From contig OY782392.1 of NCBI GenBank assembly GCA_963677765.1, forward strand, positions 210,001 to 242,000: a stretch of 32,000 bases of DNA, written 5' to 3'. This DNA comes from Candidatus Saccharimonadota bacterium. Its GTDB lineage: Bacteria > Patescibacteriota > Gracilibacteria > BD1-5 > UBA6164. Positions 1-32,000 of the stretch are shown piece after piece. A program made the position numbers and the translations under genes. Each line of letters opens with the position of its first letter. Within the stretch, counting starts at the first letter, position 1. The notes below the pieces were generated by a model. That model worked only from the letters and a program-made list of their open reading frames with translations. It had not been told where the DNA came from and made no database searches.

Positions 1-194
1 ACAATTTTTACTTCAGGTTTTTTTCATTTTGTTTTAATTTCTACTCACTCTACCCTATCTCAATCTTCTGCTAATCAAAAATTATTTTTGTTTACATAAA
101 AATCTCATCAATAGTATTCTCTATCTTCTGGAATTAAAAAACCAAAATTAGATCATCCTTGAAATTTTCAAACTATTTTATCATTATTTTTCAT
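1..194 (-). CDS. rnr: RNase R/II-family exoribonuclease, N-terminal fragment (gene runs off the window start)
   Basis: ATG at 194 on the minus strand. With TGA=Gly it reads MKNNDKIVGKFQGGSNFGFLIPEDREYYGGDFYVNKNNFGLAEDGDRVEGVEIKTKGKKPEVKIV, an OB-fold N-terminus of RNase R type (GFGFxxP ... GD.V). The frame is open to the window edge. Confidence 0.6.
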
Positions 195-323
195 GATTTT
201 TATATTATTTAACTTTAAAATTTAAAGAATTGTAACTAAATATTTTTTTTTAGCAAAACAATTTGATTTTTTATACACAAATTATATACTTATATAAAAT
301 AAAATATCCTTAATTATAAAAAT

Positions 324-1643
324 ATGTATATTTGTAGTAGTTGTTGAAACGAAAGCCTAAAATGGCAATGACAATGTGGTTTTTGTAAAGAATGGAACAC
401 ACTAAAAGAGTTTAAAGAAGCAAAAATAACCAGTAATTGAGGAGAAAAATGAGAAGCAAAAGAACTATCAAACTTGAATGATGTAGTTGCTGAAAATAAA
501 GAAATAAAAATAAAAACAAGCTCTGGAGAGCTAAATAATGTTTTATGATGATGAATTGTTCCATGATGAATTGTATTATTATCTTGAGAGCCAGGTATAT
601 GAAAATCTACTATAACTATACAATTATCAAATTTTGTAAAAGAAAATAATATAGTATATGTATCTTGAGAAGAAACTAGTTACCAAATAGCAGATAGAGC
701 AAAAAGACTAGGTATAAAATGAGATAATATGAAGCTTTTAGCTGAAAGCTGTATAGAAGATATTTTAGAAACATTAAGCAAAAATCCATGTGATATACTT
801 ATTATAGATTCTATTTCTGTAATGCATTCTAAAAATATATCTTGAGTAGCCTGAAGTATAAGCCAAGTAAGATTTATAACTGAATTATTGGTAGCTTATG
901 CAAAAAAAACTAATACTTCTGTATTTATAATATGACATATAAACAAAGACTGAAATCTAGCATGACCTAAAACTTTGGAACATATGGTAGATACAGTATT
1001 ATATTTTGAATGAGATAAATATGATAATTTAAGAATGCTAAGAGCCTTAAAAAATAGATTTTGAGCTACTAGTGAAGTTTGATTATTTACTATGTGAGAA
1101 AAATGACTAACTGACTTACAAAACCCTTGAATGGAATTTGTAAATTCAACTGATGCAGCTGTTTGATCAAGCCTATCTATAACTATAGAATGAACAAGAC
1201 CTCTTATAGTAGAAACAGAAAGTTTAACTACATATACTAAATTTTGATATCCTAAAAGAAGTGCTAGATGAATAAATAGCTCAAAACTTGATTTGATAGT
1301 AGCAGTATTATGAAAATATACCAATGTAAAACTTGAAGCTTATGATGTTTACACAAATATTGCTAGATGATTAAAAATAGAAGAACCCTGAATAGATTTA
1401 TCTTTGGCTGTATCAATAATATCTAGTAAAACAAATAAAGCATTACCTAAAGACTCTATTTTTATAGGAGAAATTTCACTTACTGGAAAAATAAAAAAAC
1501 CAATTCATCTAGAAAAAAGAATAAAAGAAGCTGAAAAAATGTGATTTAAAAATGTATATATTCCTGATTGTGAAATAAGTTCTAAAAAAACTAATTTAAT
1601 AAAACTAAAAACAGTTTCTGATTTAATAAAAAACACTAATTAA
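324..1643 (+). CDS. radA: DNA repair protein RadA/Sms
   Basis: ATG 324, TAA 1641-1643, 439 aa with TGA=Gly. Zinc ribbon MYICSSCGNESLKWQGQCGFCKEWNT, Walker A GEPGIGKST (both flanking G are TGA), ALKNRFGATSEVG motif, Lon-like C-terminal domain. Confidence 0.95.
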
Positions 1644-1660
1644 AAATTAGTGTTTTTTTA
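1627..1660. terminator. Bidirectional rho-independent terminator between radA and the antiporter gene
   Basis: Perfect 9-bp stem aacactaat / attagtgtt (1632-1640 / 1646-1654). An A-run lies upstream and a T-run downstream. Confidence 0.8.
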
Positions 1661-1662
1661 TT

Positions 1663-2964
1663 TTAAAATAATTTAAATACATAAAACTGTAAATAAAAAA
1701 CTCAAATAGATACTATATATCATAAAAATATTATTGGAAAATATCTCATATGTGCTCAAAATGTATAAAATCATCTCATTTTTGACATAACTCATATTCA
1801 AGCTGCACTTCAAAAACTTATTAAGGAACCTCATATTCACACACACAAAGTAAGAAGTAACCATCATGCAGTATCAATATCTATAGGTGATTTTAAAACA
1901 GCACTCATGACAGGTATATTATCTACAATAGAAGATAAAAATCATATAATTATACTAGAATTGATAACTCAAAAATATTCATAAAAATTTGCTATATAAT
2001 CTAGGTATCAAATAAACTCTAAAGCTCATATAATTGAAAGTATTCAAAAGAAAAACAAAAGAGTATCCATTTCTGTCTTTTTTAAATTTTTATATACATC
2101 AAATCATATTTTTTTATCGGTATTTTTTGTATGATAACTTGTTAAATGTAATAATGATAATCAAAACATCATTCCCCACATTGCTGGAATATTAAAATAA
2201 TGCTGAATAACTATAGATATAAATATAGTAAATAATCATAAAAATATTACTCTTTTTCATCATGATTTCATTCATATAGATAACATTTTTTTAGTAGAAG
2301 AAATTTTTATATTTGGTATATTCAAAGATAGAAAAAATGCAGTTACTAAAAATCATATAAAAGCTGAAGGAAATAAACTAAAAAATTCAAATATTTCAGC
2401 TTTACCAGAAGTCCAAGCCATCAATGTAGTTATATCTCAAAATGGACTCCATGATCATCAAGCATTAGCTCCAACAACTATTATTATAGCCAATGGAACT
2501 AAAATTTTTGCATCTTTTGATAGAGAAAAAGATACAGCAGCTAAAACCAAAGCTGTAGTAAGATTATCTGCAACTGGTGATATAAAAAATGCTAAGAACC
2601 CTATTATCCAAAAAATTTTTTTATATGTATATCAACTAAGAATTAATCTTTTTTTTAGCTCATCAAAAACTCCCCTATCACGCATAACTTCTATATAAGT
2701 CATAGCAACAAGTAAAAAGAAAAATATTTCTGATATTTCTATTAAAAGATTTCTTGTTTCTTCATGTAAGATATTTGTATCTAATCAATTAAGAACAAAA
2801 TAAAATCATATTATAATAAATATAGAAGTTCAAGCTAGTAAAGCTGGTTTAGCCTTATTCATATGATAATTTTCTTCTCTAGCAATGAAATAATAAGATA
2901 CTATAAATATAAATAGTGATAAATATCAAACCCAAGTATTTGTTAAACTTCAAACTAATTCCAT
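1663..2964 (-). CDS. nhaD: NhaD-type Na+/H+ antiporter (ArsB/NhaD permease superfamily)
   Basis: ATG at 2964, TAA at 1663-1665, 433 aa, polytopic membrane protein. Motifs VVGANAGGSWSPFGDITTLMAW and GIGGSLISFGSAAGIGVM. Frame verified triplet by triplet around 2401-2480. Confidence 0.8.
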
Positions 2965-3018
2965 GTTTGTTATTTTATTTTTATTATTAATATTTTAACA
3001 TTTAAAACTATTTAAAGC

Positions 3019-3052
3019 AAAAAAGATAGATTTTAAAAATCTATCTTTTTTA
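3019..3052 (-). terminator. Rho-independent terminator downstream of dut
   Basis: 13-bp perfect inverted repeat aaaagatagattt / aaatctatctttt. It is flanked by A- and T-runs and sits immediately after the dut stop. Confidence 0.8.
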
Positions 3053-3481
3053 TTATTTTGTTCATGTAGTACCAAAACCACCTCTATCTTGATTTCACAT
3101 AGTATCCACCAATTCAAAATCTGCTCTATCTATTCTAACAAACATTCATTGACCTATTCTTGTTCATGCTTCAATAACAACTTTTTCTTTTGTCATATTC
3201 ATATATGGAAACTTTATAGTATCATTATCTCAACAATAATCTTGATCTATAATTCATACAGAATTAACTTGCATAAGTCAGTGCTTTTTAAAAGTTGAAC
3301 TTCTTGGTTGAGTTTGAAGAACATATCATTTAGGAGTTTCTATAACTGTACCTGTATCAATTAATTTGAATTCTCCTGGTTCAAAAGTAACCTCTTCCAT
3401 AGCTTTGAAATCAAATGCACATGCTCAAGAAGTTTCATAAGATAAAGACTGACCATCAAATGTTTTAATTCTAACTTTCAT
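3053..3481 (-). CDS. dut: dUTP diphosphatase (dUTPase)
   Basis: ATG 3481, TAA 3053-3055, 142 aa. Motifs PRSSTFKKHG, GIIDQDYCGDND, RIGQGMF and C-terminal RGGFGTTG. Confidence 0.9.
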
Positions 3482-3488
3482 AAAAAAA

Positions 3489-3520
3489 ATATTAAAAATA
3501 ATATTAAAAATATTAAAATA
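3489..3520. repeat. Tandem 12-bp A-tract repeat in the dut/protease divergent promoter region
   Basis: atattaaaaata occurs twice in perfect tandem (3489-3500 and 3501-3512), followed by a partial third copy ttaaaata. Confidence 0.6.
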
Positions 3521-3584
3521 AATGGAAAAAAAAGCAAATATAGATATAAATATATAGTTAAAAACTTAATAAAAATGTTAAAAA

Positions 3585-4226
3585 ATGAAAAAAATAGTAA
3601 CTATATCTTTGATAATACAAGTTATTATAATAATTTCTTGATTTATCTATCTTTCTAATAAAGATAAACAATCAAAAATAGAAAATAATATTGTACAAAT
3701 AATAAAAAAAGATGAAATATCAAAAATAAACCAAAACCCTTTATGATTATTTGATGATAATCATAATCTTGAAAAAAATATATTTAGCGGATTTTTTATA
3801 ACTAAAAATACTATAATAACAGTAGAACATTGAGTTAACTCAGTAAATAGTGAGTATTTAATAAAAGATATATTTTGAAATAAATATAACTGAGAACTAA
3901 TTTATAAAAATAAGGAATTAGATTATGCATTAATAAAAATTGATAGTAATTTTAATAATTTTTATAAATATAATATAAATGATGACTTTAAGATATGAGA
4001 TGAAATTAAAAGTATTAGTTTAAAAGAAGACAAATTATTGATAAAAAAATGAAAAATAGAAAAACTTAGTGATAATAAAATACATACTGATATATATTTA
4101 GAAAGTTGAGACTCATGATGAATATTAATAGATTCAAAAAATAACATATTAGCAATTAATAACTGATATAATTTTGAAGAAAAAATATCAATATCAACAA
4201 AAATAAAAGATATTATTGAAAATTAA
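3585..4226 (+). CDS. Small membrane-anchored trypsin-like serine protease (S1/Trypsin_2-like)
   Basis: ATG 3585, TAA 4224-4226, 213 aa. N-terminal TM segment IVTISLIIQVIIIISGFIYL. Catalytic triad context TVEHG (His), DYALIKI (Asp), GDSGG (Ser; 4107-4121 = TGA GAC TCA TGA TGA). Confidence 0.75.
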
Positions 4227-4235
4227 TAATATCTT

Positions 4236-5831: not shown

Positions 5832-7136
5832 TTAAATAACTCTTAATATTTCTTCTATAGTGGTATATCATTTTATAGCTTTTAAAATACCATCTTCTTT
5901 GATTGTTATTAAATCTCAATTTCTTGCTTCTCTAATTATTTCCTCAACAGATGCTCATTCTCTAATCATATTTCTAAGATTTTCATTTAAATGAATTATT
6001 TCATATATTCAAAGTCTTCATTGATATCAACTATGATTACATTTATCACATCATTCTCACTCATAAAGTTTTATATTTTTAGCTGGTCTAACTGACATTC
6101 ATATTTCTTTCATCATTGCCTCAATCATTGCTTGTTCTTGAGGTGTTTTTTCTTTTTCTCTTTTACAATGAGGACATATTTTTCTTACAAGTCTTTGAGC
6201 TATTATAGTATCTAAAGCAGAAGCAATTATATATGATTTTAATCACATATTTACTATTCTATCCAAAGTATCTGCAGCTGATTTTGTATGAAGAGTAGAT
6301 AAAACTAAATGTCATGTAAGACTTGCTTGAGTAACTGTTTCTAGGGTTTCAGAATCCCTAACTTCTCAAACCATTATTATATCTGGATCTTGTCTAAGTA
6401 AGGCTCTTAATCAATTTGAAAAATTATATCATTTTTTTTCATTTATTTCTGATTGTATAACTCAATCCATTTGATATTCAATTGGATCTTCTAAAGTTAT
6501 AACTTTTTTATCTCTAGTATTTAATTTTGATAATATAGTATAAAGTGTTGTAGTCTTACCTGAACCTGTAGGTCAAGTAACCAATATTAATCAATTTTTC
6601 TTTGATATAGATTTTTCTAATATTCTTTTTGTAGTCCAAAAAAATCATAAATCATCAAAATCAACAACAGAATTAGTATTATCCAAAATTCTGGCTACAA
6701 CATTTTCTCAAACTCATACTGGTAGAGTTGATATTCTTACATCAATATCTCTATCATTCAAAACCATAGAGTATTTTCAGTCTTGAGGAACATCTGTAAT
6801 ATTTAATTTTAAACCAGAAGAATATTTAAGTCTTTCTAGTATTAATTTATATTCTTTTGTATTTAGCTTAAAAATATCAACTAGTACTCAATCGATTCTA
6901 AATCTAATAACTATATATTCTTCATAAATTTCAAAATGAATATCACTACTTCTAAGAACAAGAGCTCAAATAGTTAAATCTCTTAATGCATCATCTGTTT
7001 TTTGCAATTTTAAACTATTTTTTACATGTTCTTCTATTTTTTTAAATCTATCTGAGCGATATTCTTTTTTATTTTCATTTGAGAGAATAATTAATTTTAA
7101 TTCCTCTTCTAAATTATTATCTTTTTTTGCAACCAT
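5832..7136 (-). CDS. pilB: Type II secretion / type IV pilus assembly ATPase, GspE/PilB family (paralogue 1)
   Basis: ATG 7136, TAA 5832-5834, 434 aa. Walker [13 protein letters not shown], Walker B/Asp box [14 protein letters not shown], His box [11 protein letters not shown], tetracysteine CPHC...CDKC typical of GspE/PilB rather than PilT. Confidence 0.9.
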
Positions 7137-8677: not shown

Positions 8678-8707
8678 AAAAAGAAACCTTATATAAGGTT
8701 TCTTTTT
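8676..8707. terminator. Shared bidirectional terminator between convergent genes
   Basis: Stem aagaaacctt / aaggtttctt with loop atat, flanked by A- and T-runs. The stop codons of both convergent genes lie at or in its arms. Confidence 0.8.
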
Positions 8708-9866
8708 AGTTTACATAAATATATCATTCTATACTTCTATCGTTTATTGGTACTTTTCTATAAGTAATTTCGTTTAATTTTCTATAATTCATATCAGATA
8801 CAATAATATGATCTGATTTAACTTCCATAACAATTCATACATGACCATATCTAGGATTATAACCTCTACCATTGAACTGAACAATAGCTCATAAAGTAGG
8901 AGTAGATCAAGTTGCATGTCATTTTGCTCTTGCATTTGCTAACCATTGATTGGCATTTCATCACCAATTAACATTTTTATATTGTGCAACATACCGAGTA
9001 CAATTTCACCAATAAAAAGTATGTTGAGGCTGTCTCCGAACAAGTTTATATGAACCTTGAGTAGATGACATTTGACTATTAGCTTGAGTTGCAAAACTAT
9101 ATCATCATGAAGATGAAGATGAAGATGAATTTGAAGTTGAGCTAACTGCTTTTGTAGGTGCTACATAGACAGGCTTTGGAACAATCTTTTCAGCTCAAGG
9201 TAATACAAGATTAGCTCATATTTTTATAGAATCATTTTCAGAAAGTCAATTTTGTTCTCTAATAGAAGATTCTTCTATATCATATTTTTGAGCTAATGCT
9301 CATATAGTATCTCATGATACTACTTTGTGAATTATTCAAGAAACAGGAGGTATTTTTACTATTTCTCCTGGACGTAGAGTGTGATTTTTATCAAAATTAT
9401 TAGCCCAAAGAATAGAATTAATAGTAACATTAAAATTATTTGATAAAACAGAAAAAGAATCTCATGGTTTTATTTCATAACTAATTATTTCATTTGTTCA
9501 ATCTACATTTCTATCATCATTAAGTATAGTATTAACTGAAATGAATGAATCAGTAGTTTCAAAAATAGGTCATGACTCTCAAGTATTATCATCCAAGTCT
9601 CATCAATAATAAGACTCTAATATACTAGATTCATCAATATCTCACCTATAGAAGTCATAAGTAGAGTTATCATAAACAAATGACGCTAAAGTAGGATAAA
9701 AAGGAAAAATAAATACTATAAAAAATAAAACTATATAAAGATGTGAATTTGAAAGTGATTTATTATCTATTAATATAGAGTTTCAAAAACCATTTCAATC
9801 TTTAACTATCCTTAAATGTCTATCAATACGAGCTTTTATATTTACTTTTGTTTTATTATTTCTCAA
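8706..9866 (-). CDS. Membrane-anchored peptidoglycan hydrolase with two LysM repeats and a C-terminal CHAP amidase/peptidase domain
   Basis: TAA 8706-8708. There is no in-frame ATG near the 5' end, so the likely start is TTG at 9866 (386 aa). TM segment LYIVLFFIVFIFPFYPTLASFVY. LysM-like IKPGDSFSVLSNNFNVTINSILWAN and VSGDTIGALAQKYDIEESSIREQN. Ser-rich linker. CHAP motifs GNCTRYVA (Cys) and GHVGIV (His). Confidence 0.8.
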
Positions 9867-9998: not shown

Positions 9999-10310
9999 TT
10001 AAGCAACTGATAATACTTCTAATTTTGTTAAGTGAGCTCTAAATCAGTTATTTTTCATCATTCTTTTTTTAGATTTCATTTTGAAAACTCTAACTTTTTC
10101 TCCTTTGAATTGATCTAAAACTTTGAATTCTACTTTAGAACCAGCAACAACAGGAGTACCTACTTTAGTATCATTACCTTCTTCATCTGAAACTAATAAA
10201 GCTTCCATAGAAAAAGTTGAATTAACTTCTTTATCTATTTTTTTTACATCAATTACATCACCTTGTTTTACAGTGAATTGGTTTCATCCTAACTCTATAA
10301 CAGCTATCAT
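9999..10310 (-). CDS. rplU: 50S ribosomal protein L21 (bL21)
   Basis: ATG 10310, TAA 9999-10001, 103 aa: MIAVIELGGNQFTVKQGDVIDV...GTPVVAGSKVEFKVLDQFKGEKVRVFKMKSKKRMMKNNGFRAHLTKLEV. Confidence 0.9.
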
Positions 10311-10539
10311 GTTATATAAAAATTAAAAAATAAATTATTTAATATTTATAAGCCTGCAAGCCATAAATATTTTTAAGCATAAAACTTAAAAAATAAAAAC
10401 CCTAATTTTTCTTATTCCTTAAGTCTTAAAAAATTTTTTAAGTTTCTAAAGTAAAAAACATAAAATAAAAAACAATTGTTATTATTTTCTATTCTCTGTT
10501 TTCCCCTCTTGAAATCATTAAATCACAAAAAGCTCAAAA

Positions 10540-10614
10540 TGGCTGGGGTGGAGGGATTCGAACCCCCGAATGACGGAGTCAAAGTCCGTTGCCTTACCGC
10601 TTGGCGACACCCCA
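10540..10614 (-). tRNA. tRNA-Gln (anticodon UUG)
   Basis: The only GC-rich island in the window. The minus strand reads TGGGGTGTCGCCAAGCGGTAAGGCAACGGACTTTGACTCCGTCATTCGGGGGTTCGAATCCCTCCACCCCAGCCA. It has a 7-bp acceptor stem, anticodon loop CTTTGAC, T-loop GGTTCGAATCC and an encoded CCA. It is close to canonical bacterial tRNA-Gln. Confidence 0.9.
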
Positions 10615-10645
10615 AAATATACTTTTAGTTCATTCGAGCTTGTGT

Positions 10646-11809: not shown

Positions 11810-13633
11810 ATGTGTTGAATATTTGCCTATAATTGAAAAAATAATTCAATTGATTACTTAATAGAAGGATTAAGAAAGTTAGAATACAGATGATATGACA
11901 GTGCTTGAGTTGTAGGAGTAAATAAAAATTGAGAAATATTTTTAGAAAAATCTATATGAAAAGTATCTAATTTAGCATCAAAAGTAGAAAAAAATACAAA
12001 TAAAGAAAACAATTATAATTGTTGAATTGCTCATACAAGATGGGCTACTCATTGAAAAGTTACAATTGAAAATACTCACCCACATTTTAGTGAAAACCAA
12101 AGATTCTATGTAGTTCACAATTGAATTATTGAAAATTACATGAATATAAAAGAAAGCTTAGAAAAAAAATATAAATTCTATTGAGAAACAGATACTGAAG
12201 TAATAGCTAAACTCATAGAAGATTTATTTGATTGAAATATAGTTACTACAATAGAAAAAGTTACAAAAAAACTAGTTTGAGCTTATTCTATAGCAGTTAT
12301 AGATAAAGAAAACCCTAGTACTCTAATATGAGTAAAACTATGAAGTCCAATGGTAATTTGACTTTGAGATAATGCAGTTTATTTATCAAGTGATATAAAT
12401 GCTTTATGAAAAGTAGCAAATGAATTTACAACTCTTGATGATAATGAGACTGTTGTTATAAAAGATGGTAAATATAATGTATACTCTCTTTGAGAAAAAG
12501 TTAATAAAGATACTGAAGAAATAACACCTGATTTATGACTAGCAGATAAATGAAAATTTGAAACATTTACTGAAAAAGAAATATATGAAATACCTAATGT
12601 TTTAAGAAATGCTTTAAAATGAAGAATTAATTTTGAAAACAAAACAATAAATAATGAAACTTTGGAAGAATTAGATAAATATAATTTTGAAAACATAGAA
12701 ATAATAGCTTCATGATCAAGTTATTTTGCATGAGTAGTATGAAAAAATTGGTTTGAAGAGTTAGCATGAATAAGAACTGAAGTTAGAGTTAGTAGTGAAT
12801 TCTTATATTCAAAATTTATACCAAATAAAAAGACTTTATATATTTTTATGTCTCAATCATGAGAAACAGCAGATGTTAGAGAATCTGTTAGAATGGTAAA
12901 AGAAAAATGATGTTTTAGTTTTTGAATTGTAAATGTAGTATGAAGTACTATTGCTAGAATGTGTGATATGTGATTATATACTCACTCATGAATTGAAATA
13001 GGAGTAGCTTCTACAAAAAATATTGTAGCTCAGTTAGCTGTACTATTATTGATGTCATTATCTATGTGAATAAAAAGAGATTTACAATTAAATGAAGCAA
13101 AAAATATAATAGAAAAATTATGAGAACTAGATAATAAATTAGAATGATTATTAGAGAAAAAAAATCAATATAAAACATTAGCAGATAAATATTCTAAATA
13201 TAATAATTTCTTCTTCTTATGAAGAAATCTTGTTTATTGAACTGCTTGTGAATGTAGTTTAAAACTAAAAGAATTAAGTTATATACATGCAGAAAGTTAT
13301 TCTACATGAGAATTAAAACATTGACCTTTAGCTCTAATCTGACCAAATTTTCCTGTTGTAGTAATAAATCCAAAATCTATAATGAGAGAAAAAACAATAT
13401 CAAATATAAAGGAAATAAAAGCTAGAAATTGATTAGTATTATGAGTTATAACAGCTTGAGATTCATTAAAAGATATATATGATGATATAATTGAAATACC
13501 AAAAACTCATCCTGCATTAACACCTTTCCTACCATTAATTCCTTTATGGATATTTTCAGTAGATATAGCTAAAAACTTGAAAAGAGATATAGATAAACCT
13601 CAAAATTTAGCAAAATCTGTTACAGTTGAATAA
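11810..13633 (+). CDS. glmS: Glutamine--fructose-6-phosphate aminotransferase (isomerizing)
   Basis: ATG 11810, TAA 13631-13633, 607 aa. I translated the whole gene with no in-frame TAA or TAG. N-terminus MCGIFAY, motif GIAHTRWATHG (12023-12055), C-terminus KPQNLAKSVTVE. Confidence 0.97.
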
Positions 13634-14096: not shown

Positions 14097-14573
14097 TTAT
14101 TTAATACTTATTATTTCGTATTCAAAATTTCAAGCTAATGCTGAAACTTTTACTTTTTGTCATTTCTTTTTTCAAAGAAGTGCTTTTCAAATAGGAGAAT
14201 CATTTGATATAGTTGGAGTTTCAGCTAATATATTTGCTTCTGTAGAACCTACTATTTTTAATGTATCTATTTCTCATGAGTCTAAGTTTTTAATTTCAAC
14301 TATAACTCACATATTTACTCTACCTCATTTTTCAACTCATTCTTCAATAATTTCTACTTTTTTAAGTTGTTCTTCTAAATCAGAGATTCTTAATTCAACT
14401 TGAGCTTGTTCATTTCTAGCATCTTCATATTCTGAGTTTTCTGAAAGATCTCAAAATGAAATAGCTTCTTTTAATTTTTCAGCAATTTCAACCCTTTTAA
14501 GAGTTTTTAAATCATTTAACTCATCTTGAAGTTTTTTTAATCACTCCTTAGTTACATATATTTTATTTGACAT
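14097..14573 (-). CDS. greA: Transcription elongation factor GreA
   Basis: ATG 14573, TAA 14097-14099, 158 aa: ...ITKEGLKKLQDELNDLK...[28 protein letters not shown]...SNDSPIGKALLGKKKG. Confidence 0.92.
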
Positions 14574-14580
14574 TTTTATA

Positions 14581-15285
14581 TTAATTAGTTCTTAAAGTAT
14601 TTAGTTTTTCTTTTACCAAATTATAATCATTTTTTCTTATTTTCAATCAAAAAACAACTCAATTATTTCATATAACAATTCTTACTATATTATCATCTAT
14701 ATCTTCATTAAGATTTATAAAAAATGAATTATCTCAAAAATTATTTATTTCATTTATACTAAAAGGTAGTTCATCTGATAAAACATTAAAAATATCTTTT
14801 AAATCATTATATTTTCTAGTAGTAAAAAAATACAGAGTTAAATCTTTTGAATAATATTCTAAATATTCATCAGGATATTCATTAGTTAAATCAAACAAAT
14901 TTGCATTAACTTCCATTCTAGTTAAATCATATGATTTGAACAAATCTAATATTTCATTGTAATTTTGTCATAAAACAATTTCACTTGTAGGAATATCTTC
15001 AATATCAAATTCATCATTATTTAAGTCATTTCATAAATCAAAATCTTGATTTAAATCATAAATATTTTCATCATTTGTATCATTAGAAGATCATGTAAAT
15101 GAAAAATCTTCATCATCATTATAATTTAAATTATTCTCTTCTTGAAATTCTATAGAACTTTCAATATTATCATCATTTTTTATTTGCTTTAAAAAATTTC
15201 TATAATCATCTGAAATATAATAAAACAATATATTTACAGAAAACGATAGAATCAAAAATATTAAAAATAATATAAGATTTCTCAT
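14581..15285 (-). CDS. Hypothetical membrane-anchored protein with a highly acidic D/E/N-rich region
   Basis: ATG 15285, TAA 14581-14583, 234 aa, N-terminal TM segment LILFLIFLILSFSVNILFYY. It joins track ORFs 15091..15285 and 14734..14943 through in-frame TGA codons. Confidence 0.65.
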
Positions 15286-15300
15286 AATTAATAATGATTA

Positions 15301-15831
15301 TTAAACTTTTATATCAGCAAATTCTAATTCTATTGGAGTATCTCTTCATAAAAGATTTACACTCAATTTAACTATTCCCTTTTTATCATTAACTTCTGTT
15401 ATCAATCATTCATTTCCTTCAAATGGTCATTTAATAACTAAAGCCATATCTCAAACTTGATATTTTGATTCAAAAGTTTCTGATCTTTCTGATACTTTTC
15501 ATTTTAATTGTTCTAATTCTTCACCTGAAACAGGAACAGGTATATTTCAAGCACCTAAAAATCATGTAACATTTGGAGTATTTCTAACTATATACCAACT
15601 TTCATTAGTTACATTCATTTGAACTAATATATACCCTGGTAATAAATTTTTTTGTTTTTTTACTTTAGTTCATCATGCTCTAACAGAAACAACATCATGA
15701 GTTGGAACATATACATCCAATATATAATCTTCCAATCAAAAACTTTCTCTTCTTTGAAAAAGTGATTTTTTAACGTTTTCTTCAGTTCAAGAAACAACTT
15801 GAATAACGTACCACTCTGGTTTTTTTAACAT
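15301..15831 (-). CDS. nusG: Transcription termination/antitermination factor NusG
   Basis: ATG 15831, TAA 15301-15303, 176 aa: [20 protein letters not shown]..., [19 protein letters not shown]-terminal KOW GDMALVIKGPFEGNEGLITEVN. Confidence 0.92.
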
Positions 15832-15867
15832 ATTTATTATTTTTTAAATTATTAAATTTTTAAAGTA

Positions 15868-16050
15868 CTAAGATACTAAATTTTTTAAATATAATAATAC
15901 TTCAGAAAATAAAGTTGAAGCAGCAAATAAATATATTCAAAATAAAACTAATACAATTAAAACAATTGTAAAATAATTTTTTGTTTCTTCTCTAGTTGGC
16001 CATACAACATGTTTTAATTCTCTAACAGAATCTTTAAAAAATTGTAACAT
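15868..16050 (-). CDS. secE: Preprotein translocase subunit SecE
   Basis: ATG 16050, TAG 15868-15870, 60 aa: MLQFFKDSVRELKHVVWPTREETKNYFTIVLIVLVLFGIYLFAA.... It lies immediately upstream of nusG, as is typical. Confidence 0.8.
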
Positions 16051-16708: not shown

Positions 16709-16738
16709 AAAAACCTTTCTTAAGAAAGGTTTTTTTTT
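16707..16738. terminator. Shared bidirectional terminator
   Basis: Stem aaaaaaacctttct / agaaaggttttttt with loop ta. It overlaps the stop codons of both convergent genes. Confidence 0.85.
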
Positions 16739-17633
16739 ATTTTTTAAATCTATTAAATAAAATTAGACTTCAAAATAATAATGATAAAAACACTAATAAA
16801 GTTTGAGCTGGTCAAGTTTGTGGTAGTCTTTCATTAGATTGTGCAACACTAATAACATTATTATTGATATCTTCTGAATTTACTTCAACTCATACATTTG
16901 AAGCTTCATCTCAAGCTGAATTTAAACTTAATTCGTCTTCATTTACTTCATATTGAATATCAGAAATATCAACTCATTCAAAAACTGTTTCAGAATCAAC
17001 TCAAAACTCTATATTTTGATCATTGATATCTTTAGTTGATAATACTATAATTTTATATTGTTCTCATTTTTTAGGTATACCATCAAGAGTTAATATAAGA
17101 GTTTTATTATCTGTTTCTTTTATAAATGAATCCAATACCTCAAAATAATCATTTGGATTTTCTACTCATTCAACTTTGAATTTTCTATTTTCTTTATCTT
17201 CATCTTTTATAGGATTAGAAAAAGTTAATTCTATTTCGTTTTCTCAAATCATTTTTGATTGTTCTACGAAAAATAATCCTAAATTTTCTTGATTTCAAGA
17301 AGTTGATAATCATTCTAAAGTATTTGCTTTTAACTCATTACTTTTGAATGCTTGATTACCCCATTCATCATATCATACTAATGAAAAATAATAAGAAGTA
17401 TTACTTTCTAAATCTGTAAATGTATAAGTAGTATCAGATAAAAAATCAATACTATCTTCAACTATTCAAGATTCTTTTCAGTAATCAATTCTATACATTT
17501 CTGATCAATCAGAAGCTTCCCAATCAAAAACTAAACCACTAGAGTCATTACTAGATACTCTAAAATTAGAATCAGCATTAGCTTGACTAAATAAAAAACT
17601 AATTGCTAAAATAGAAACAAGTATTTTTTTCAT
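16737..17633 (-). CDS. Surface protein with signal peptide, fibronectin type III-like domain and C-terminal LPXTG sortase sorting signal
   Basis: ATG 17633, TAA 16737-16739, 298 aa. Signal peptide MKKILVSILAISFLFSQANA. FN3-like stretch LVFDWEASDGSEMYRIDYG...YTFTDLESNTSYYFSLVGYDEWGN. C-terminus LPQTG-PAQTLLVFLSLLFGSLILF-NRFKK (LPQTG = 16812-16826). Confidence 0.8.
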
Positions 17634-17727: not shown

Positions 17728-18276
17728 ATGCAATTAAAAAACATTAACAAAGCCTTTACTGTTATAGAGTTACTTGTAGTAATAGCTGTCATAATAATAA
17801 TGGTTTTGTGAGCTACCAATATGAATTTTAATTCAACAACAAATAATCAAAAATTAGAAATTTTCACAAATAAAGTTATATCAGAAATAGAAACAGTCAG
17901 AACTAATGATTTGGTATGAAAATGAGAATTAAATTGAGCCGCTTTGGAAATACCTGATAAATGGCTAATAGAATTTTCTAGTTCATGATTATGAAGTATA
18001 TCTACAAAAATAGAAAGAAATTCTAGTATAGAAGATTTTAGTGATTTTTTTATGGAAGAAGGATTCTCTATAGATGAGGTATGATGTGATATGCCAGATA
18101 GAACATCTTATAATACAACAAATTCTTGAACAATAGTTTTTGATAAATGAAACTATAGTTTACAATGAGTAAATTGTCAAAATTGAGAAACACTAATAAC
18201 AATAAAAACATGATTTAGATGAATCCAAGACACTATAAATTTTGATACAATAAATTGACTAATAATAAAAGACTAA
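17728..18276 (+). CDS. Type IV pilin / pseudopilin with a prepilin N-terminal cleavage-methylation domain
   Basis: ATG 17728, TAA 18274-18276, 182 aa. N-terminus MQLKNINKA/FTVIELLVVIAVIIIMVLG, with Glu at +5 and Ala rather than Gly at -1. Confidence 0.8.
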
Positions 18277-19067: not shown

Positions 19068-20420
19068 TTAAGTTCATAAAACTGATAATATTTCTTCTAA
19101 AGATGTTTCTCAAAGAATAACTTTAAGTAATCAGTCATCTTTTATAGGAACCATTCAGTCTCATACTGCTTGTATCTCAATTTGTAAACGAGATGCATTT
19201 TTTAAAACTAAAGTTTCCATTTTATCAGTCATTTCTAAAACCTCATATAATCAAACTCTTCAATTATATCAAGTATGATTACATTTTTCACATCATCAAT
19301 CTTTTGCTTTGTATAAAAATATATCATCTTTATTTTTTATATATTTTCATACTCTTCAAACTATATAATCTCTAATTTTATCACTTGCTTTATATTTTAC
19401 TTTACAATTAGTACAAAGCTTTCTAGCAAGTCTTTGACTTATTATCATTCTCAAACTAGAAGTTATCAACAAAGGATCAACTCATAAATTTATTAATCTC
19501 TGTATTGTATGACTAGCTGAGTTTGTATGGATTGTAGAAAAAACAATATGTCATGTAATACTTGCTTCAACTGCCAACTTTGCAGTTTCATCATCTCTTA
19601 TTTCTCAAACCATTATAATATCTGGATCTTGTCTAAGTAGACTTCTTAATCATCTAGCAAAAGTAAAATCAATAGCTGGATTTATTTGTGTATGATTAAC
19701 TCATGATATTCTATATTCAACTGGATCTTCAAGAGTAGATATATTTTTTTCTTTTGGATCAAATTGAGATAAAAGTGAAAACAATGTTGTTGATTTACCA
19801 GAACCTGTAGGTCATACAGCAAGAATCATTCAATAATTATCTTTTAAATGATTTTTTACTTTTACCATATTATAAGGCATAATACCTAATTGCTTTAATT
19901 CTGGTGGTCTATCATCTTTTTTTAGAAGTCTTACTACACATTTTTCTCAATATATAGTAGGAATAACAGAAATTCTCATATCTATGGATTTTCATCAAAA
20001 AAGCTTATATGCAATTTTACCGTCTTGAGGAAGTCTATGTTCATCTATCCTAAGATATGACATTATCTTAATTCTAGCAATAATTGCATCTTTATAAGAT
20101 AAATCTAATTGTTTATAATTTAAGAAGTTTCAATCAACTCTAAATCTAATTGTTATATCTTTATCATTTGGTTCTATATGTATATCTGATGCTCTATATT
20201 TAATAGCATTCAAAAATATATCATTTACAATACCTATTAACTCACCATCTTCTTGTTTTTCTCAGTAAGAATTTATATTTAAGTCAGAATTTATTGAACT
20301 TTTAGTAGTTTTAGCTCAATTTGAAGATACACCAAAAAGATCTTCTACTTTTGTGTTTTTAGTAGAAGTTCATTTGTTTCTAGAGATTTTTTGTTTCTTT
20401 AGTATATCTTGAATACTCAT
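19068..20420 (-). CDS. pilB: Type II secretion / type IV pilus assembly ATPase, GspE/PilB family (paralogue 2)
   Basis: ATG 20420, TAA 19068-19070, 450 aa. Motifs [16 protein letters not shown], Walker [37 protein letters not shown], tetracysteine CTNC...CEKC. Confidence 0.9.
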
Positions 20421-20478
20421 ATATAAATACATTAAAACTAACTCTTTATAAATAGTATCATAAATATATTTTTGATAC

Positions 20479-20509
20479 AAAAAAACAAGCTTGACATTGC
20501 TTGTTTTTT
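20479..20509 (-). terminator. Rho-independent terminator at the end of recQ
   Basis: Stem aaaaaacaagc / gcttgtttttt with an 8-nt loop. It overlaps the recQ stop (20508-20510) and separates recQ from pilB-2. Confidence 0.75.
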
Positions 20510-22790
20510 ATAAATCTTTTTTTTCTATCATTGAAATAGCTATTTTTATATCAAAATATGTTATTTTATCTTTTCATATTTTTTCTAAAGATTCTTTAAT
20601 TGGTTTTAATTTATCTATATTTCAATTAAAATCATTTATTATAATATCTTTTATAGTTTTTAGAGATGAAAAACTTGTGTATTTCATTATATCAGAAAGA
20701 CTAATCTCTCAGTATTCATATAATTTTATAACATGAGATTCAATTGTTATATTTTTAAGTCATCTTTCAGATTCTATATCTGATAAACTTTTTCAATCTT
20801 TTATCATTTTCAAAGTTTCTTTATAAGTATCAACTTTTTTATTATCAACAGAACTATTTCAATTTTTATTTGATTCTTTTTGTTTTTTATAAATTTCCTT
20901 TGTTCATAATCTCATTTTTATATATTGTTGTAATTCAGTATTATCTTGTTTTAAAATACTATCTCTAGTTATAGAAACAATTCATGTTTCTGTAATTCAA
21001 ACAAGAGGAAATTTTCAATTACTTCTATACAAATAATCATTTTGAATAAGAGCTTCAATAATTGACTGAATAGTTTCAGATGTTAAATCACTTAAAGCTC
21101 AAAAGTAGTCATCTTTATCCATATTCCAATCAGATATTTTTTTATCCTTACTTCACCGTAAAAATTTGGTAATTATTTGTAGTCAAAATTTTTGATCATA
21201 TTTTTTAACAACTTCTAAAACTAAACTAAAAACTGATATTTTTACGATATCTGCCATTTGAGTACTAGACATATTTTTTTTCTCTATACAAAAATCACAA
21301 CTTCAACATCAGTTTTTGATTTTTATCATATCCTCTTCATCTCAAAAATAATCTAATATAAATTTTTTTCTACAATGAGGATAAAATAATAATTTTTTTA
21401 TTTGTTCTAGTTTAAAGTAGTTCTCTGTTTTTAATGCTTCTTGATGTGACCAATCAACAGGAATCAAATTATGCTTAAACTTATTTTTTATAAGAGTAAG
21501 TCATCTTCATCTAAAGTCATTTGGAGTATCTTCACTATCAAGTCACCTTCTCAAAATATTATATTTTTCAAAAATTCTAATAATAGCTCAAACTAATAAG
21601 TCATTTTTTAATCAGCTTTCATTAGCCATAACCATATAAGTTTTAGTTATTTGATGATTTGCTCATTCTCAATACTTGAAATCACTATAAAGATAATCAT
21701 AAAAATCTAATATTGTTTTTTTATCTGGAAAAGAGTTATCTATAAAAAATTCTTGAATCTTTGTATCTGAAAAAGAAGCTAAAACAACTCAATAACTATT
21801 TTTTCAATCTCTTCATGCTCTACCTACTTCTTGATAATAGTTTTCAATACTACCAGGTAAATTATAGTGAATAACAAATCTTATATCTTTTTTATCAATT
21901 CACATACCAAAAGCATTAGTAGCTACTATAACTTTATAAACTCAATTCATAAAATTATTTTGTTCTATTTCTCTTTTTTCTGCTGGCATTTCTCAAGTAT
22001 AAACTCAGGCACTTATATTATTTTGAATCAAATAATCATAAACTTCCTTAACATTTTTTCTACTTGAACAATATATAATTCATGAACCAGGTGTTTTTTC
22101 TAGTATTTCTGAAACTTTTGATAATTTTTCATCTCTTTTTGAAATTTCTCTTATTATTATAGATATATTTTTTCTTTCAAATCATGTTGTAAAAGTTTTT
22201 GGTTCTTTTAATCATAATCTATCAACAATATCTTCTCTTACTTTTGAAGTTGCTGTTGCAGTAAGAGCAATAACTGGAAAATCTTTATTTTCTCTTAATG
22301 ATTCTATAAAATCTCTTAATTTCATATAACTAGGCCTAAAATCATGCCCCCATTGACTAATACAATGGGCTTCATCTATAGCTAGCAATGAAATTTTAAT
22401 TTTTGAAATAACTCTCAAAAAATCAGAATTATTAAGTCTTTCAGGAGCAATATATAGAAATTTTACAGTTCAGTCATTTTTTGAAATATCATTAAGTATT
22501 ATTTGTTTGTCATAGTTATCTATAGTTGAATTAATTAACTCTGCTTTTAGTCAAAGCTCATTTAATTTATCAACTTGATCTTTCATAAGTGATATTAATG
22601 GAGATATAACCAAAACTAGTCAATCCATAGCAACTCAAGGTAGTTGATAAGTCAAAGATTTTCATCATCATGTTGGCATAAAAACAAGAGTGTCTTTTTT
22701 ATTACAAACACTCTCTATTATTTCTCTTTGTCATTCTCTAAAATTATCTAATCAAAAATTAGATTTTAATATAGTATTTAAGTTATCCAT
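20508..22790 (-). CDS. recQ: ATP-dependent DNA helicase RecQ (long form with C-terminal extension)
   Basis: ATG 22790, TAA 20508-20510, 760 aa. Motifs [73 protein letters not shown], and Zn-binding Cys cluster CRKK...CGSCDFC. Confidence 0.95.
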
Positions 22791-26449: not shown

Positions 26450-27532
26450 TTATCAACTAATAACTCAACTCATTATTAATTCATCATCTAAATATATAGC
26501 ACATATTTGTCATACAGCTATAGCTCTTTGTGAGTTTTCAAACTCAACTCTATATTTAAAACTAGATTTTATATCACTATTATATATATCTTGCTTGTAA
26601 ATAGTACAATCCTGATCTTCTTGTCTATATCTAATTTTTGCTTTAGCTTTTAATGGAAAACTAAATTCTGAATTAGATAAAAAATTGAAATCTTCAACAT
26701 ATAATTTATCATCAAAAAGTTGTAAATCATTTGAATTTCAAACAATTATTTCATTTTTTTCTATATCTTTTTTGACTACAAATATAGGTTCTGATTGTCA
26801 TCAAATATCAAGACCTTTTCTTTGTCCAATTGTATAATAATATACTCATTTATGTTCTCATAAAACTTTTCAACTAGTATCCTTTACTATACCTGGTTTA
26901 GGTTTTATCTTTTTTTCAAGAAACTTAGACATATCTACTTTTCAAACAAAACATATTCATTGACTATCTTTTCTAGTTGCATTTGGCAATCAAGCTTCTT
27001 CTGCTATTTTTCTAACTTCTGATTTTTCAAGGTTTCAAATTGGAAACAATGCTTTTGATAATTGTTCTTGATTTAATCAAGCTAAAAAATAGCTTTGATC
27101 TTTGTTTTTATCAATTCATTTTTTCAAATGATATAATCAATCTTCTCATTTTTCTATTTGAGCATAGTGTCACATTGCGATTTTATCAAATCAGTACTCC
27201 AAAGCTTCATCTAAGAAAACTCTAAATTTAACTTCACTATTACACATTATATCTGGATTTGGAGTAATTCATTTTTTATATCATTCGTACATATAATCCA
27301 AAACTTTTTGAGAATAAGTTTCCCTATAATCAAAAGTAAAAAATGGTATATCCAAATACTCTGCTACCTCTTTTGCTACTTCTATATCATCTTTTGTTGG
27401 ACAGTATTCTCCATCTGGTGCTAAATAGTTTATCATAAAACCAGCAACAACATCGTATCATTGCTTTTTTAATAAATAAGCTGAAACAGCACTATCTACT
27501 CAACCTGATAATCAAACTAAAACTTTTTGCAT
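26450..27532 (-). CDS. mnmA: tRNA-specific 2-thiouridylase MnmA
   Basis: ATG 27532, TAA 26450-26452, 360 aa. PP-loop VLVGLSGGVDSAVSAYLL, then TPNPDIMCNSEVKF, MGHYA, KDQSYFL, RKDSQGICFVG. Confidence 0.95.
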
Positions 27533-28660: not shown

Positions 28661-28731
28661 AAAAAATCTTTTAAAATATGAGTTTTAATATATAATAATT
28701 ATAATTAAAAATTTAAAATTAAAAAAATAAA

Positions 28732-29808
28732 ATGAAAATAGGGATAGATCTTAGATTTATAAAAGATGAGCTATACTCAAAATTTGCACTAGAGCTTGTA
28801 AAAGCCTATATAAATAGTAATTCTTGAAATAAATATACAATATATCTAAACAAAGATATAAATTTATGAATGGAAAATATTATTGATAAAAAAATAGTAA
28901 ATATTGAAAATGAAAGTTTTCAAGAACAATATAAATTTTTGAAAATATTAAAAGAAGACAAAAATAATACTATGATTTTTTTTAATCAATATAAACCAAT
29001 TTTATATAAATGAGATTATATAACTATAATATGATCATTAAAAGAAATCTATTATATGAATTTTAACTCTCATATAAAAAAAATGAAGTTCTTGTTTTTG
29101 ATGGAAAACAACCTAAAAAATTCTAGAAAAACAATATGTTTAGATAAAAACACAAAAAATGAACTTATAGAAAAGTATAATATAAAAGAAGAAAAAATAG
29201 AAATAATAAACTGATTCTTCCCTAAAAGCTGAAAAGTAGAAAACATAAATGAAATTGCTATAAATATAAAAAATAAATTTTTAATAAAAAATGATTATAT
29301 AATTTATTCATGATGAGATTCTATAGAAAAAAATTATGAAAAATTAGTTTTAGTATTAGATAGATTAAGAAAAGACAATATAGAAATTGATTTAGTGTTT
29401 TTATGAAATAATATTTCAAAAAATATTCAACTAAGAAATCATATACTTGATTTATGACTAGAAAAAAATGTATATTTTCTTTGATCACCTGATATAGAAT
29501 CAAAAAAATACTTATATAAAGAAGCTCTTTTTACAATATTCCCTAGTTTTTATGAAACTTTTCCTTTTAGACTAAGTGAACCCATGTATTTTTGAGCACA
29601 AATACTTTCATCAAATCTAAATAATATAAAAAAGATTTTTTGAGAAAAAATAACATACTTCTCACCTATATCAGTAAATAGTATTTACAAAGTAGCTAAA
29701 GATTTTATAATAAAAAATGAAAACAAAAAAGATATTGATTATTCAGAAATAAAAAATGAATATTCATTAGAAAAAACTACAAAACAATTACAAGAAATAA
29801 TAAAATAA
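28732..29808 (+). CDS. Glycosyltransferase, GT4 / group-1 (GT-B fold)
   Basis: ATG 28732, TAA 29806-29808, 358 aa. Starts MKIGIDLRF. The C-terminal half has the typical LYKEALFTIFPSFYETFPFRLSEPMYFG (E-x7-E region). Confidence 0.8.
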
Positions 29809-29810
29809 TT

Positions 29811-30506
29811 ATGCTTAGTCCTAGAAATATTGAAATTTTAAAAATAATAGTTTTAGAATATTTAGAAACTTGATGAGTACTATGAAGCAAAATGCTACTA
29901 AAAAAGTATGACTTATGAGTTTCAAGTGCTACAGTAAGAAATGATATGGCTAGACTTGAAGAATTAGAGTTAGTATATCAACCTTATAATTCAGCTTGAA
30001 GATTACCTACATCAAAATGACTTAGAGCTTTTGTTAATTTTTTGATGCAACAAGTTCCTGAGTATTTTTTAGAAGTTGAAAATATAGAAAATAAAGCATG
30101 AAAAATAAATAATATATGGGATTTTTCAAACAAGATAAGTTTTGAGTTAGCTAAAAACACTTGAGAAATCGCTTTTTTTGCTGTAGAAGAAAAAAATATA
30201 ATGAATTATTCTGGTATTTGATATTTCCTAGAAAATAATCATTCTAGATTATGAAACTCTATTTTTTCTATTATAAAAATGCTTGATGACAAAGATAGTT
30301 TTCTAAACTTCATAAAAAGTTTTCCTATAAATTCAAGCATAGATGTTTTTATATGAGAAGAAAATATACTTCCATTTCTAAAAGACTATACAATTATAAT
30401 AAAAAAAGTTTATATAGATTGAATGGAAGCATATATATGAATTATATGAAGCCTAAAAATGAATTATAGCTTTAATATAAGTGCTGTAAACTGAATAATA
30501 AAATAG
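29811..30506 (+). CDS. hrcA: Heat-inducible transcription repressor HrcA (short form)
   Basis: ATG 29811 (2 nt after the glycosyltransferase stop), TAG 30504-30506, 231 aa. Winged-helix N-terminus YLETGGVLGSKMLLKKYDLGVSSATVRNDMARLEELELVYQPYNSAGRLPTSKGLRAFVNFL and C-terminal GIIGSLKMNYSFNISAVN. Confidence 0.8.
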
Positions 30507-30538
30507 AAGAATAATTTTAAAAATTATTCTTCTATTTT
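30501..30538. terminator. Shared bidirectional terminator between hrcA and the lipoprotein gene
   Basis: 16-bp perfect stem aatagaagaataattt / aaattattcttctatt. The hrcA TAG (30504-30506) lies in the 5' arm and the lipoprotein gene's TAA (30524-30526) lies in the 3' arm. Confidence 0.85.
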
Positions 30539-30712
30539 ATTTATAGACTCTTGTCTTTTATTTAATGTATTAACAACATCTCTAGCATTATCTGGAGCAG
30601 TATCCAAAGTATTTATATAGTTTTCTCAAATATCTTTAGTTTCTTGTATTACTTGTGATTCGCATGAGTATAAAAAACTAATAAATAAAGTTATTAATAA
30701 TGTTTTTTTCAT
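30524..30712 (-). CDS. Small putative lipoprotein
   Basis: ATG 30712, TAA 30524-30526, 62 aa. Starts MKKTLLITLFISFLYSC with a lipobox-like L-Y-S-C. Confidence 0.55.
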
Positions 30713-30720
30713 ATAAATAT

Positions 30721-31656
30721 CTAATTATATTTTAAATCTCATATTATTTTTTTCATATCTGGTTTCAAGTCTCATATGAATTTTTGTTTTTTTCAATATA
30801 AATCAAATTCTAAACTATATGCATGTAAAGCCTGTCTAGATAATCAAAATTTTGAAAATACTAGATTATTGATTTTTTCTTTTGAATAAACTTTATCTCA
30901 TATTATAGGAAATCCTATACTTGATAAATGAACTCTTATTTGATGAGTTCTTCATGTTTCTATATTTACTTTCAAAAGACTATAATTATCCCCTATATAT
31001 CACAACAACTCAGCATTTGTAATAGCTATCTTTGGATTAATAGGATTTTTTGTAGTCATTTTTAATCTATTATTCGGATCTCTTCAAATATAACTCTCTA
31101 TTCTAAATTTATCTTTTGATACTTTTCAATAAACTATAGCTAAATAATTTTTTGTTATTTTTCTATCTTTTATTATTTCTGATAAATAATTCATCATTTT
31201 ATCAGTTTTTGCTATAAGTATAATTCAAGAAGTATCTTTGTCTAACCTATGTACTATTCAAGGTCTTTCAACTCATCATATACTCGGCAAATTATCTTTA
31301 CAATGATATAATATAGCATTAACTAATGTGTTACTATTACCTCATTCTCAAGGTACAGGATGTACATTTATAGAAGAGTCTTTATTTATAATAAGTATTT
31401 CATTATCTTCATATATAATATCTATATCTATTTTTTCTGGTTCTATTTTGTCTAAAGATTTTTTTATAATATGAACCTTTAATTCATCTCTAGATGAAAT
31501 TTTTATATTTTTATTTACTACTTTTCAATTTACAGATAAATTTCATGAATCAATAATTTTTTGTATATAACTTCTAGAAAAATCATTAAAAAGAGTAGAT
31601 AAATAAATATCTACTCTTACTTTTTTTTCAGAATATACACAAAAATTATATATCAT
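30721..31656 (-). CDS. rluD: RluA-family 23S rRNA pseudouridine synthase (RluD-like)
   Basis: ATG 31656, TAG 30721-30723, 311 aa. S4-like N-terminus RVDIYLSTLF..SRSYIQKIID, catalytic HRLDKDTSGIILIAK, and GRTHQIRVHL. Confidence 0.9.
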
Positions 31657-31672
31657 TATTTTATAATTATAA

Positions 31673-32000
31673 TCATAATGATGATTTTATATCATCAATT
31701 TTATCTTGATCTTGATTTTCTTTTTCTTTTGCTTCTATTTCAGCATTATATAAATCACCTAAATCAATCCATTCTGATTGTTGTTTTGCAACAAGTTTTT
31801 TTATATCATCTGGATGTTGTTTAGCTAATTCTCTGAATTTTTCTCTTTCTTCTGTAAAAACTTTTATCAATTCATCAAATTGAAATTGAGACAAAGTAGG
31901 AACAGCATCAATAACTCTCTTTTTTTCCATAGTATTAAGAGAAAGACTATATTTTAATAAGTCTAAAAAATCTTTTTCATCAACTTGAACATCTCAAGAG
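31673..32000 (-). CDS. Hypothetical protein, C-terminal part (frame open to the window end)
   Basis: TAA 31673-31675. The track ORF starts at ATG 31930, but the same frame stays open through a TGA up to position 32000, so the true start may lie outside the window. The C-terminus is K/E/D-rich. Confidence 0.55.

Follow-up and report, generated by a model that had tools for sequence, protein, structure and literature searches.

UGA as a glycine codon, and CGG as a probable tryptophan codon, in a very AT-rich chromosomal stretch of Candidatus Gracilibacteria

Introduction

The window analysed here, i.e., the whole 32,000-nucleotide (nt) stretch spanning positions 210,001 to 242,000 of contig OY782392.1 (assembly GCA_963677765.1), is almost certainly written in genetic code 25, with UGA for glycine and with UAA and UAG as the sole terminators. 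Over its full length (1..32000), the window carries 39 protein genes and one tRNA gene, and it can be read only when TGA is taken as a sense codon. An earlier note on this DNA, made from the sequence alone, had claimed that TGA stands for glycine (table 25) and not for tryptophan (table 4). That claim agrees with (i) alignments in which the TGA codons were masked; (ii) Pfam scores; and (iii) the codons found in relatives.

The use of UGA for glycine in this lineage is already known under the name of translation table 25, and the window is an ordinary member of that known lineage. The studies behind table 25 are reportedly those of Wrighton in 2012, Campbell and Rinke in 2013, and Hanke in 2014. 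Table 25 dates from 2012 as a proposal for BD1-5 and from 2013 as one for SR1; several hundred genomes of the class JAEDAM01 now have this assignment (PMC8629427; bioRxiv 10.64898/2026.05.24.727570). The program Codetta also infers UGA as glycine in this clade (PMC8629427). The finding is correct and important for annotation, yet it is known biology. The single point that merits further work is the behaviour of CGG, described below, for which a prediction has already been published.

Open reading frames of the window

The guanine plus cytosine (GC) content of the window is 22.3%. When TAA, TAG and TGA are all taken as stops, the longest open reading frame (ORF) in the six frames has 142 amino acids (aa), as the earlier note had claimed; there are just three ORFs of at least 100 aa and no ORF of 200 aa. 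Moreover, this longest ORF (896-1324, minus strand) lies antisense to radA and is junk. If termination is limited to TAA and TAG, the longest ORF grows to 760 aa, 20 ORFs reach at least 200 aa, and 92.4% of the window is covered by 40 non-overlapping ORFs (greedy choice, at least 60 aa), two of which are truncated at the edges of the window. Two controls show that TGA in particular is responsible: (i) freeing TAG in place of TGA gives no ORF of at least 200 aa; and (ii) in 200 shuffles of the window, read with TAA and TAG as stops, no ORF reaches 200 codons (maximum, 165).

Coding density amounts to 7% under table 11 vs. 89-92% under table 25. The comparison of translation tables suggested in the earlier note came out as foreseen there, as did the other suggested checks that were carried out: ORF length and coding density collapse under table 11 and open up with TGA as a sense codon. 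At such a density a table 11 annotation of this DNA is worthless, and the statement that standard-code annotation is invalid here holds. As to gene number, the 40 genes that had been counted do correspond to 40 ORFs, but one of them (10412-10615, minus strand) overlaps the tRNA-Gln(UUG) gene at 10540-10614 and was rejected as a gene, which leaves 39 protein genes. These genes end with TAA (35) or TAG (3), and GlmS stops at its conserved C-terminus, in line with the claim that no other terminators are used.

The residue encoded by TGA

There are 544 in-frame TGA codons spread over the 39 genes, i.e., 5.5% of a total of 9,810 codons, together with 38 TGG (0.39%) and 99 GGN codons. A frequency of 5.5% is glycine-like, which favours glycine over tryptophan as the meaning of TGA. 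The competing possibility is code 4, in which UGA encodes tryptophan, as in the AT-rich Mycoplasmatales and several insect endosymbionts. The 22% GC of the window suits code 4, the ORFs open equally under table 4, and public pipelines have translated the lineage in this manner (see below). Under code 4, however, tryptophan would make up about 6% of all residues.

The alignment with homologues that the earlier note had proposed was carried out as a neutral test: TGA was translated as X, and four proteins were aligned to structures from standard-code organisms deposited in the PDB, namely GlmS to 4amv (Escherichia coli), RadA to 5lkm (Streptococcus pneumoniae), MnmA to 9hlv, and RecQ to 1oyw (E. 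coli). These structures were chosen because a protein search with GlmS gave clade members alone and, hence, no neutral set. The masked TGA positions face glycine in 88 of 123 cases and tryptophan in none (0/123), so that no TGA was found at a conserved tryptophan position. For individual proteins, glycine is faced by 24 of the 32 TGA codons of RadA in 5lkm, by 27 of the 42 of GlmS in 4amv, and by 19 of the 22 aligned TGA codons of MnmA in MnmA structures. In the same alignments, GGN codons face glycine at 14 of 22 positions, TGG codons face tryptophan at four of seven, and the remaining positions face glycine in 2.9% of 1701 cases (Fisher p = 2e-84 for TGA vs. the others).

Domain scores lead to the same answer. 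In all ten proteins tested, the Pfam score is lower with TGA as tryptophan than with TGA as glycine: from glycine to tryptophan, SIS falls from 124 to 69 bits, T2SSE from 407 to 339, Zip from 127 to 81, and DUF212 from 127 to 92, while the match to the KOW domain of NusG is lost entirely.

The glycine reading can also be followed in individual motifs, and every one of the codon strings that the earlier note had quoted (RadA, GlmS, protease, KNRFG, LPQTG, SGGVDS and the PilB Walker A) proved exact. The gene radA (324..1643, plus strand) has 32 in-frame TGA codons; its Walker A motif at 585-608 reads TGA GAG CCA GGT ATA TGA AAA TCT, with two glycines encoded by TGA, and the glycine of KNRFG (1050-1064) is also TGA. 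The gene glmS (11810..13633, plus strand), with 42 in-frame TGA codons, begins with Met-Cys-Gly (11810-11818, ATG TGT TGA) and ends with KSVTVE followed by TAA; within it, positions 12023-12055 encode G-I-A-H-T-R-W-A-T-H-G, where both terminal glycines are TGA and the tryptophan is TGG. A trypsin-like serine protease (3585..4226, plus strand) has its G-D-S-G-G at 4107-4121 written as TGA GAC TCA TGA TGA, i.e., three of five codons are TGA. On the minus strand, recQ (20508..22790) has 42 TGA codons and a GGGKS motif at 22656-22670 spelled TGA TGA TGA AAA TCT, and mnmA (26450..27532) has 24 TGA codons and a PP-loop SGGVDS at 27491-27508 with TGA-encoded glycine.

Codon-by-codon comparison with relatives

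The window was aligned codon by codon with 43 syntenic loci, which comprise six assemblies and 37 metagenome contigs (labels beginning with L denote retrieved loci). Opposite the TGA codons of the window, GCA_028689115.1 (L001) has TGA at 205 positions, GGN at 57 and TGG at two; for the human oral taxon HOT-871 (L002) the corresponding numbers are 132, 38 and 0. Often the GGN codon is GGT, although getting there from TGA takes two mutations; TGG can be reached in one and yet is almost never faced. Over the 43 loci there are 283 columns with a TGA majority: GGT occurs in 132 of them, GGA in 126 and TGG in none. Likewise, 177 columns contain TGA and GGN alone, 48 are invariant TGA, and none contains TGA and TGG alone. 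Judged from these aligned sequences, TGA is evolving as a synonymous glycine codon. On the other hand, TGG is kept as TGG at 21 of 23 and 13 of 14 positions in pairwise comparisons with relatives and, together with the four of seven TGG codons that face tryptophan in the PDB alignments, this upholds the earlier claim that TGG still encodes tryptophan. Code 4 is refuted by the masked alignments, the Pfam scores and the columns of the 43 loci, and we give it hardly any credence.

The same columns bear on a further alternative, according to which the window follows the standard code and its in-frame TGA codons are due to pseudogene damage, sequencing error, selenocysteine or programmed read-through. 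All that speaks for it is that TGA is normally a stop. In-frame TGA codons, nevertheless, occur in all 39 genes, they are far too many for selenocysteine (no tRNA of the size of tRNA-Sec was seen), and table 11 leaves most of the window non-coding. Moreover, TGA positions are kept in independent assemblies from different samples, in both the invariant and the TGA plus GGN columns, and a pattern common to independent assemblies rules out sequencing error and pseudogenes. TGA counts, conservation and coding density thus refute a standard code with damaged or recoded TGA, which is the least probable of all the explanations considered here.

tRNA genes with anticodon UCA and release factors

Loss of release factor 2 (RF2) usually accompanies the reassignment of UGA, as with table 4. 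According to Sieber et al. (PMC6851277), prfB was detected in no BD1-5 genome. The summary given in that same paper also states that UGA as glycine was validated proteomically in BD1-5 by Hanke et al. (PMC4032931, as given in PMC6851277).

In the genomes of GTDB species, a search pattern shaped like a tRNA and requiring G1-C2-G3, U73 and the anticodon UCA gave at least 120 matches. Among the matches listed, most lie on contigs of Gracilibacteria, of Absconditabacterales or of mislabelled "Peribacteria". A tRNA(UCA) gene is present in three genomes syntenic with the window, i.e., HOT-871 (L037), GCA_041694155.1 (L010) and GCA_013368515.1 (L112), as well as in at least about 90 other contigs of Gracilibacteria and Absconditabacterales. 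With ARAGORN, these genes are confirmed as tRNAs that carry the anticodon UCA, are 74-79 nt long and lack a long extra arm; the label tRNA-SeC that it assigns to them is due to the anticodon alone. With Rfam, the tRNA(UCA) of L010 matches the ordinary tRNA model (47.8 bits), and just one of three tRNA(UCA) genes found by ARAGORN is recognised at the gathering threshold. The tRNA(UCA) of the relatives carries the glycine identity set (G1:C72, C2:G71, G3:C70 and U73) and, because these elements are present, glycyl-tRNA synthetase should charge it. The identity elements are those of glycine and not of tryptophan, which also tells against code 4.

Two forms of tRNA(UCA) can be distinguished: (i) a 79-nt form in Gracilibacteria, whose D-arm is unusual and whose CCA is encoded, often located beside tRNA-Gly(GCC) and tRNA-Arg(GCG); and (ii) a 74-nt form in Absconditabacterales, located within a Tyr-Ala-Arg-Glu-Leu tRNA cluster. 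Examples of both forms lie at L037 6517-6595, L010 1375-1453, L007 4438-4516, L017 6342-6416 and L056 584-657.

As a side observation, three GC-rich contigs contain a canonical tRNA-Gly body with anticodon UCA: L099 (269-341), from a metagenome-assembled genome (MAG) of Gemmatimonadales with 67% GC; L006 (16-90), from an Anaerolineaceae MAG with 65% GC; and L085 (4566-4638), from a contig labelled Woesearchaeota with 55% GC. Table 11 leaves the ORFs of these contigs unbroken, and TGA serves there as a stop. In L099 the gene sits among tRNA-Thr, tRNA-Tyr and tRNA-Thr, which is the place of glyT in E. coli. These three may represent opal suppressors of the tRNA-Gly type that occur in nature, or else assembly variants.

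For the window itself, relatives and the literature suggest a mechanism in which UGA would be read by a dedicated tRNA-Gly(UCA) and RF2 would be absent, so that nothing would compete for UGA.

Glycine and arginine codon usage

TGA accounts for 85% of the glycine codons of the window (544 TGA vs. 99 GGN). Across relatives, the TGA share of glycine codons climbs steeply as GC drops: 0.20-0.24 at 35% GC (L141, L143-L145 and L147), 0.53-0.55 at 30% GC (L161 and L139), 0.70 at 25% GC (HOT-871), and 0.77-0.85 at 22-24% GC (L125, L128 and the window). That code-25 bacteria use UGA heavily had already been noted (PMC10746230, citing Campbell 2013). In the explanation favoured here, AT mutation pressure has since driven most glycines from GGN codons to TGA, which is richer in AT. 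The window illustrates codon capture carried to its extreme: what used to be a stop now serves as the most used codon of an amino acid.

Two genes depart from this average, both of them small samples. In the gene for ribosomal protein L21 (rplU; 9999..10310, minus strand), six of eight glycine codons are GGN and two are TGA (p = 3e-4 vs. the 15% average of the window), and in the dUTPase gene dut (3053-3481) seven of 16 are GGN (p = 0.007). One possible reason, given so few codons, is that highly expressed genes favour GGN for translation.

The codons of the arginine boxes are dominated by AGA (247 of 273), with six CGT, one CGC, no CGA and three CGG. Codons of the NNC and NNG type are nearly absent throughout the window (e.g., one GGC, two CTC and two ACG).

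CGG as a probable tryptophan codon

CGG occurs three times in the 9,810 codons of the window: twice in the gene for a LysM-CHAP cell-wall hydrolase (8706..9866, minus strand), at 9036-9038 (aa 277) and 8994-8996 (aa 291), and once in recQ, at 21156-21158 (aa 545). All three lie in columns where low-GC relatives carry TGG. Considering the loci below 27% GC, CGG is found in seven columns (a small sample), six of which it shares with TGG, two with TAT, and none with AGA, AGG or another CGN codon. Conversely, in 165 columns with an arginine majority, CGG is a minority codon in none, whereas AGG is so in 78, CGT in nine and CGA in three. In the CHAP protein, the CGG codon for aa 291 stands beside the catalytic cysteine, in the motif G-N-C-T-[CGG]-Y-V; an alignment in which this codon was masked places it opposite the W of G-Q-C-T-W-Y-V in the staphylococcal CHAP structures 2k3a and 2lrj.

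The sole contrary hint is that the CGG of recQ faces arginine in E. coli RecQ (1oyw). This column is variable in Gracilibacteria: the DNA of L148 has TGG, and two relatives translated with table 25 have tryptophan. The count of tryptophan in this column is mostly uninformative, as 19 of the 21 sequences with tryptophan are table 4 translations in which it may stand for TGA. Further, no tRNA(CCG) was seen in the approximately 120 retrieved loci, and a tryptophan meaning of CGG is thus without tRNA support from them.

Two other assignments were considered. That CGG is arginine in the low-GC clade is unsupported, for it shares no column with arginine codons there, but arginine does hold in relatives at 33-35% GC (L143 and L153), where CGG pairs with arginine codons. 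That CGA is tryptophan was rejected: CGA is absent from the window, and its partners in relatives are AGA and AAA.

All in all, CGG probably encodes tryptophan in this organism. With slightly less confidence, we consider that the code of the low-GC Gracilibacteria clade differs from table 25, with UGA as the main glycine codon and CGG (not CGA) as a second tryptophan codon. To our knowledge, no NCBI table combines UGA as glycine with CGG as tryptophan. Hence, of the earlier reading of the window as table 25, the assignment of UGA to glycine stands, but the code probably goes beyond table 25, inasmuch as CGG behaves as tryptophan in this clade. By means of Codetta, Shulgina and Eddy (2021) predicted CGG as tryptophan in some Gracilibacteria and as arginine in others (PMC8629427); the orthologue columns described above give independent support to this still unvalidated prediction for part of the Gracilibacteria.

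Ambiguous decoding

Three points weigh against the assignment of UGA to glycine under code 25: (i) the 32 kb of the window contain neither a tRNA(UCA) gene nor a release-factor gene, prfB included; (ii) 35 of the 123 masked TGA positions face a residue other than glycine (alanine 10, serine six, glutamine six, aspartate five, and the rest singles); and (iii) some UGA or UGG codons may be decoded ambiguously. The second of these fits ordinary divergence, given that GGN codons show the same order of mismatch (eight of 22 non-glycine).

On the third point, UGA would encode glycine, but either tRNA-Gly(UCA) would read UGG as well through U34 wobble, with glycine inserted at part of the tryptophan codons, or tRNA-Trp would read part of the UGA codons. 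Such ambiguity was raised for the clade by Shulgina and Eddy (PMC8629427). As the major glycine codon, UGA must be served by an abundant tRNA; besides, CGG seems to take over some tryptophan positions and the highly expressed L21 gene retains mostly GGN, both being small samples. These points are indirect, and TGG is well conserved at tryptophan positions; we therefore regard ambiguous decoding as improbable, although clearly less so than code 4 or the standard code. Speculatively, an abundant tRNA-Gly(UCA) that misreads UGG by wobble would favour the shift of critical tryptophans to CGG. The residue beside the catalytic cysteine of the CHAP protein could be one such tryptophan, moved to a codon with a dedicated tRNA.

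Lineage and genomic setting

All named best matches of GlmS and RecQ belong to Candidatus Gracilibacteria. The gene order of the window is that of the complete chromosome of HOT-871 (CP017714.1) and is the same in six other genomes; at the syntenic locus of GCA_041694155.1 (L125), protein is 79% identical to that of the window. Best matches and gene order identify the window as chromosomal DNA of a very AT-rich member of Candidatus Gracilibacteria (BD1-5; GTDB class JAEDAM01), related to HOT-871, and the lineage proposed in the earlier note was right.

As Gracilibacteria have phages and prophages that use code 25 (PMC10746230), the window might have come from one of them instead of from the core chromosome. 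Its content is, however, that of a housekeeping region (radA, glmS, mnmA, recQ, greA, nusG, secE, rplU, dut, hrcA and a rluD-like gene), no phage hallmark domain was found in Pfam scans of the window proteins, and the gene order shared with HOT-871 and the six other genomes is that of a chromosome. A phage origin is thus very improbable.

Other features of the window

The sole tRNA of the window is tRNA-Gln(UUG) (10540..10614, minus strand). The block of greA, a hypothetical gene, nusG and secE (14097..16050, minus strand) consists of genes each of which is broken by TGA under table 11.

Two paralogous PilB/GspE-type ATPases are encoded on the minus strand. The first one (T2SSE; 5832..7136) has 23 TGA codons and its Walker A motif at 6552-6575, and the second one (19068..20480) has 26 TGA codons; in both, the first glycine of Walker A is TGA. 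Between them lie a fibronectin type III surface protein (16737..17633, minus strand), whose C-terminus bears a sortase-type LPQTG signal (16812-16826; glycine encoded by TGA) followed by a hydrophobic tail, and a pilin-like protein (17728-18276) with an N-terminal methylation motif. The ATPase pair, the pilin-like protein and the LPQTG protein point to machinery for a type IV pilus and for surface proteins anchored by sortase. This arrangement of pilus and surface-protein genes is kept in all syntenic relatives.

Mistranslation in public databases

The RecQ protein of the window is present in public protein collections (P0123), where it differs from the translation obtained here by tryptophan at the 42 TGA sites alone. 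Since these are the sole differences, the entry must have been stored as a table 4 translation. Among 120 RecQ entries (P0123 and its relatives P0124-P0242), 101 have tryptophan at 4-7% and glycine at 1-3% of residues; these look like table 4 mistranslations of code-25 genomes. As far as the window is concerned, table 4 puts tryptophan at about 85% of the glycines, and the error is real in public data.

Comparison with known genetic codes

Like table 4, which is used by Mycoplasmatales, Entomoplasmatales and insect endosymbionts, the window shows a reassigned UGA in an AT-rich reduced genome; it differs in that UGA encodes glycine instead of tryptophan.

Its closest counterpart is table 25, as used by SR1/Absconditabacteria and Gracilibacteria. 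The window shares with it (i) UGA at conserved glycines; (ii) UGG as tryptophan; (iii) UAA and UAG as stops; (iv) a low GC content and membership of the Gracilibacteria lineage; and (v) relatives that possess tRNA-Gly(UCA). It departs from table 25 in the extent to which UGA has taken over glycine at 22% GC, and in that CGG is apparently not arginine. The GC content of the clade ranges from 0.21 to 0.53 (PMC8629427), and the window lies at the bottom of this range.

Finally, the code that Codetta predicted for Absconditabacteria has UGA as glycine and both CGA and CGG as tryptophan (PMC8629427). The window resembles it in that CGG is very rare, shares columns with TGG and TAT, and falls on the QCTW motif, but it has no CGA codon and, in its relatives, CGA stays arginine.

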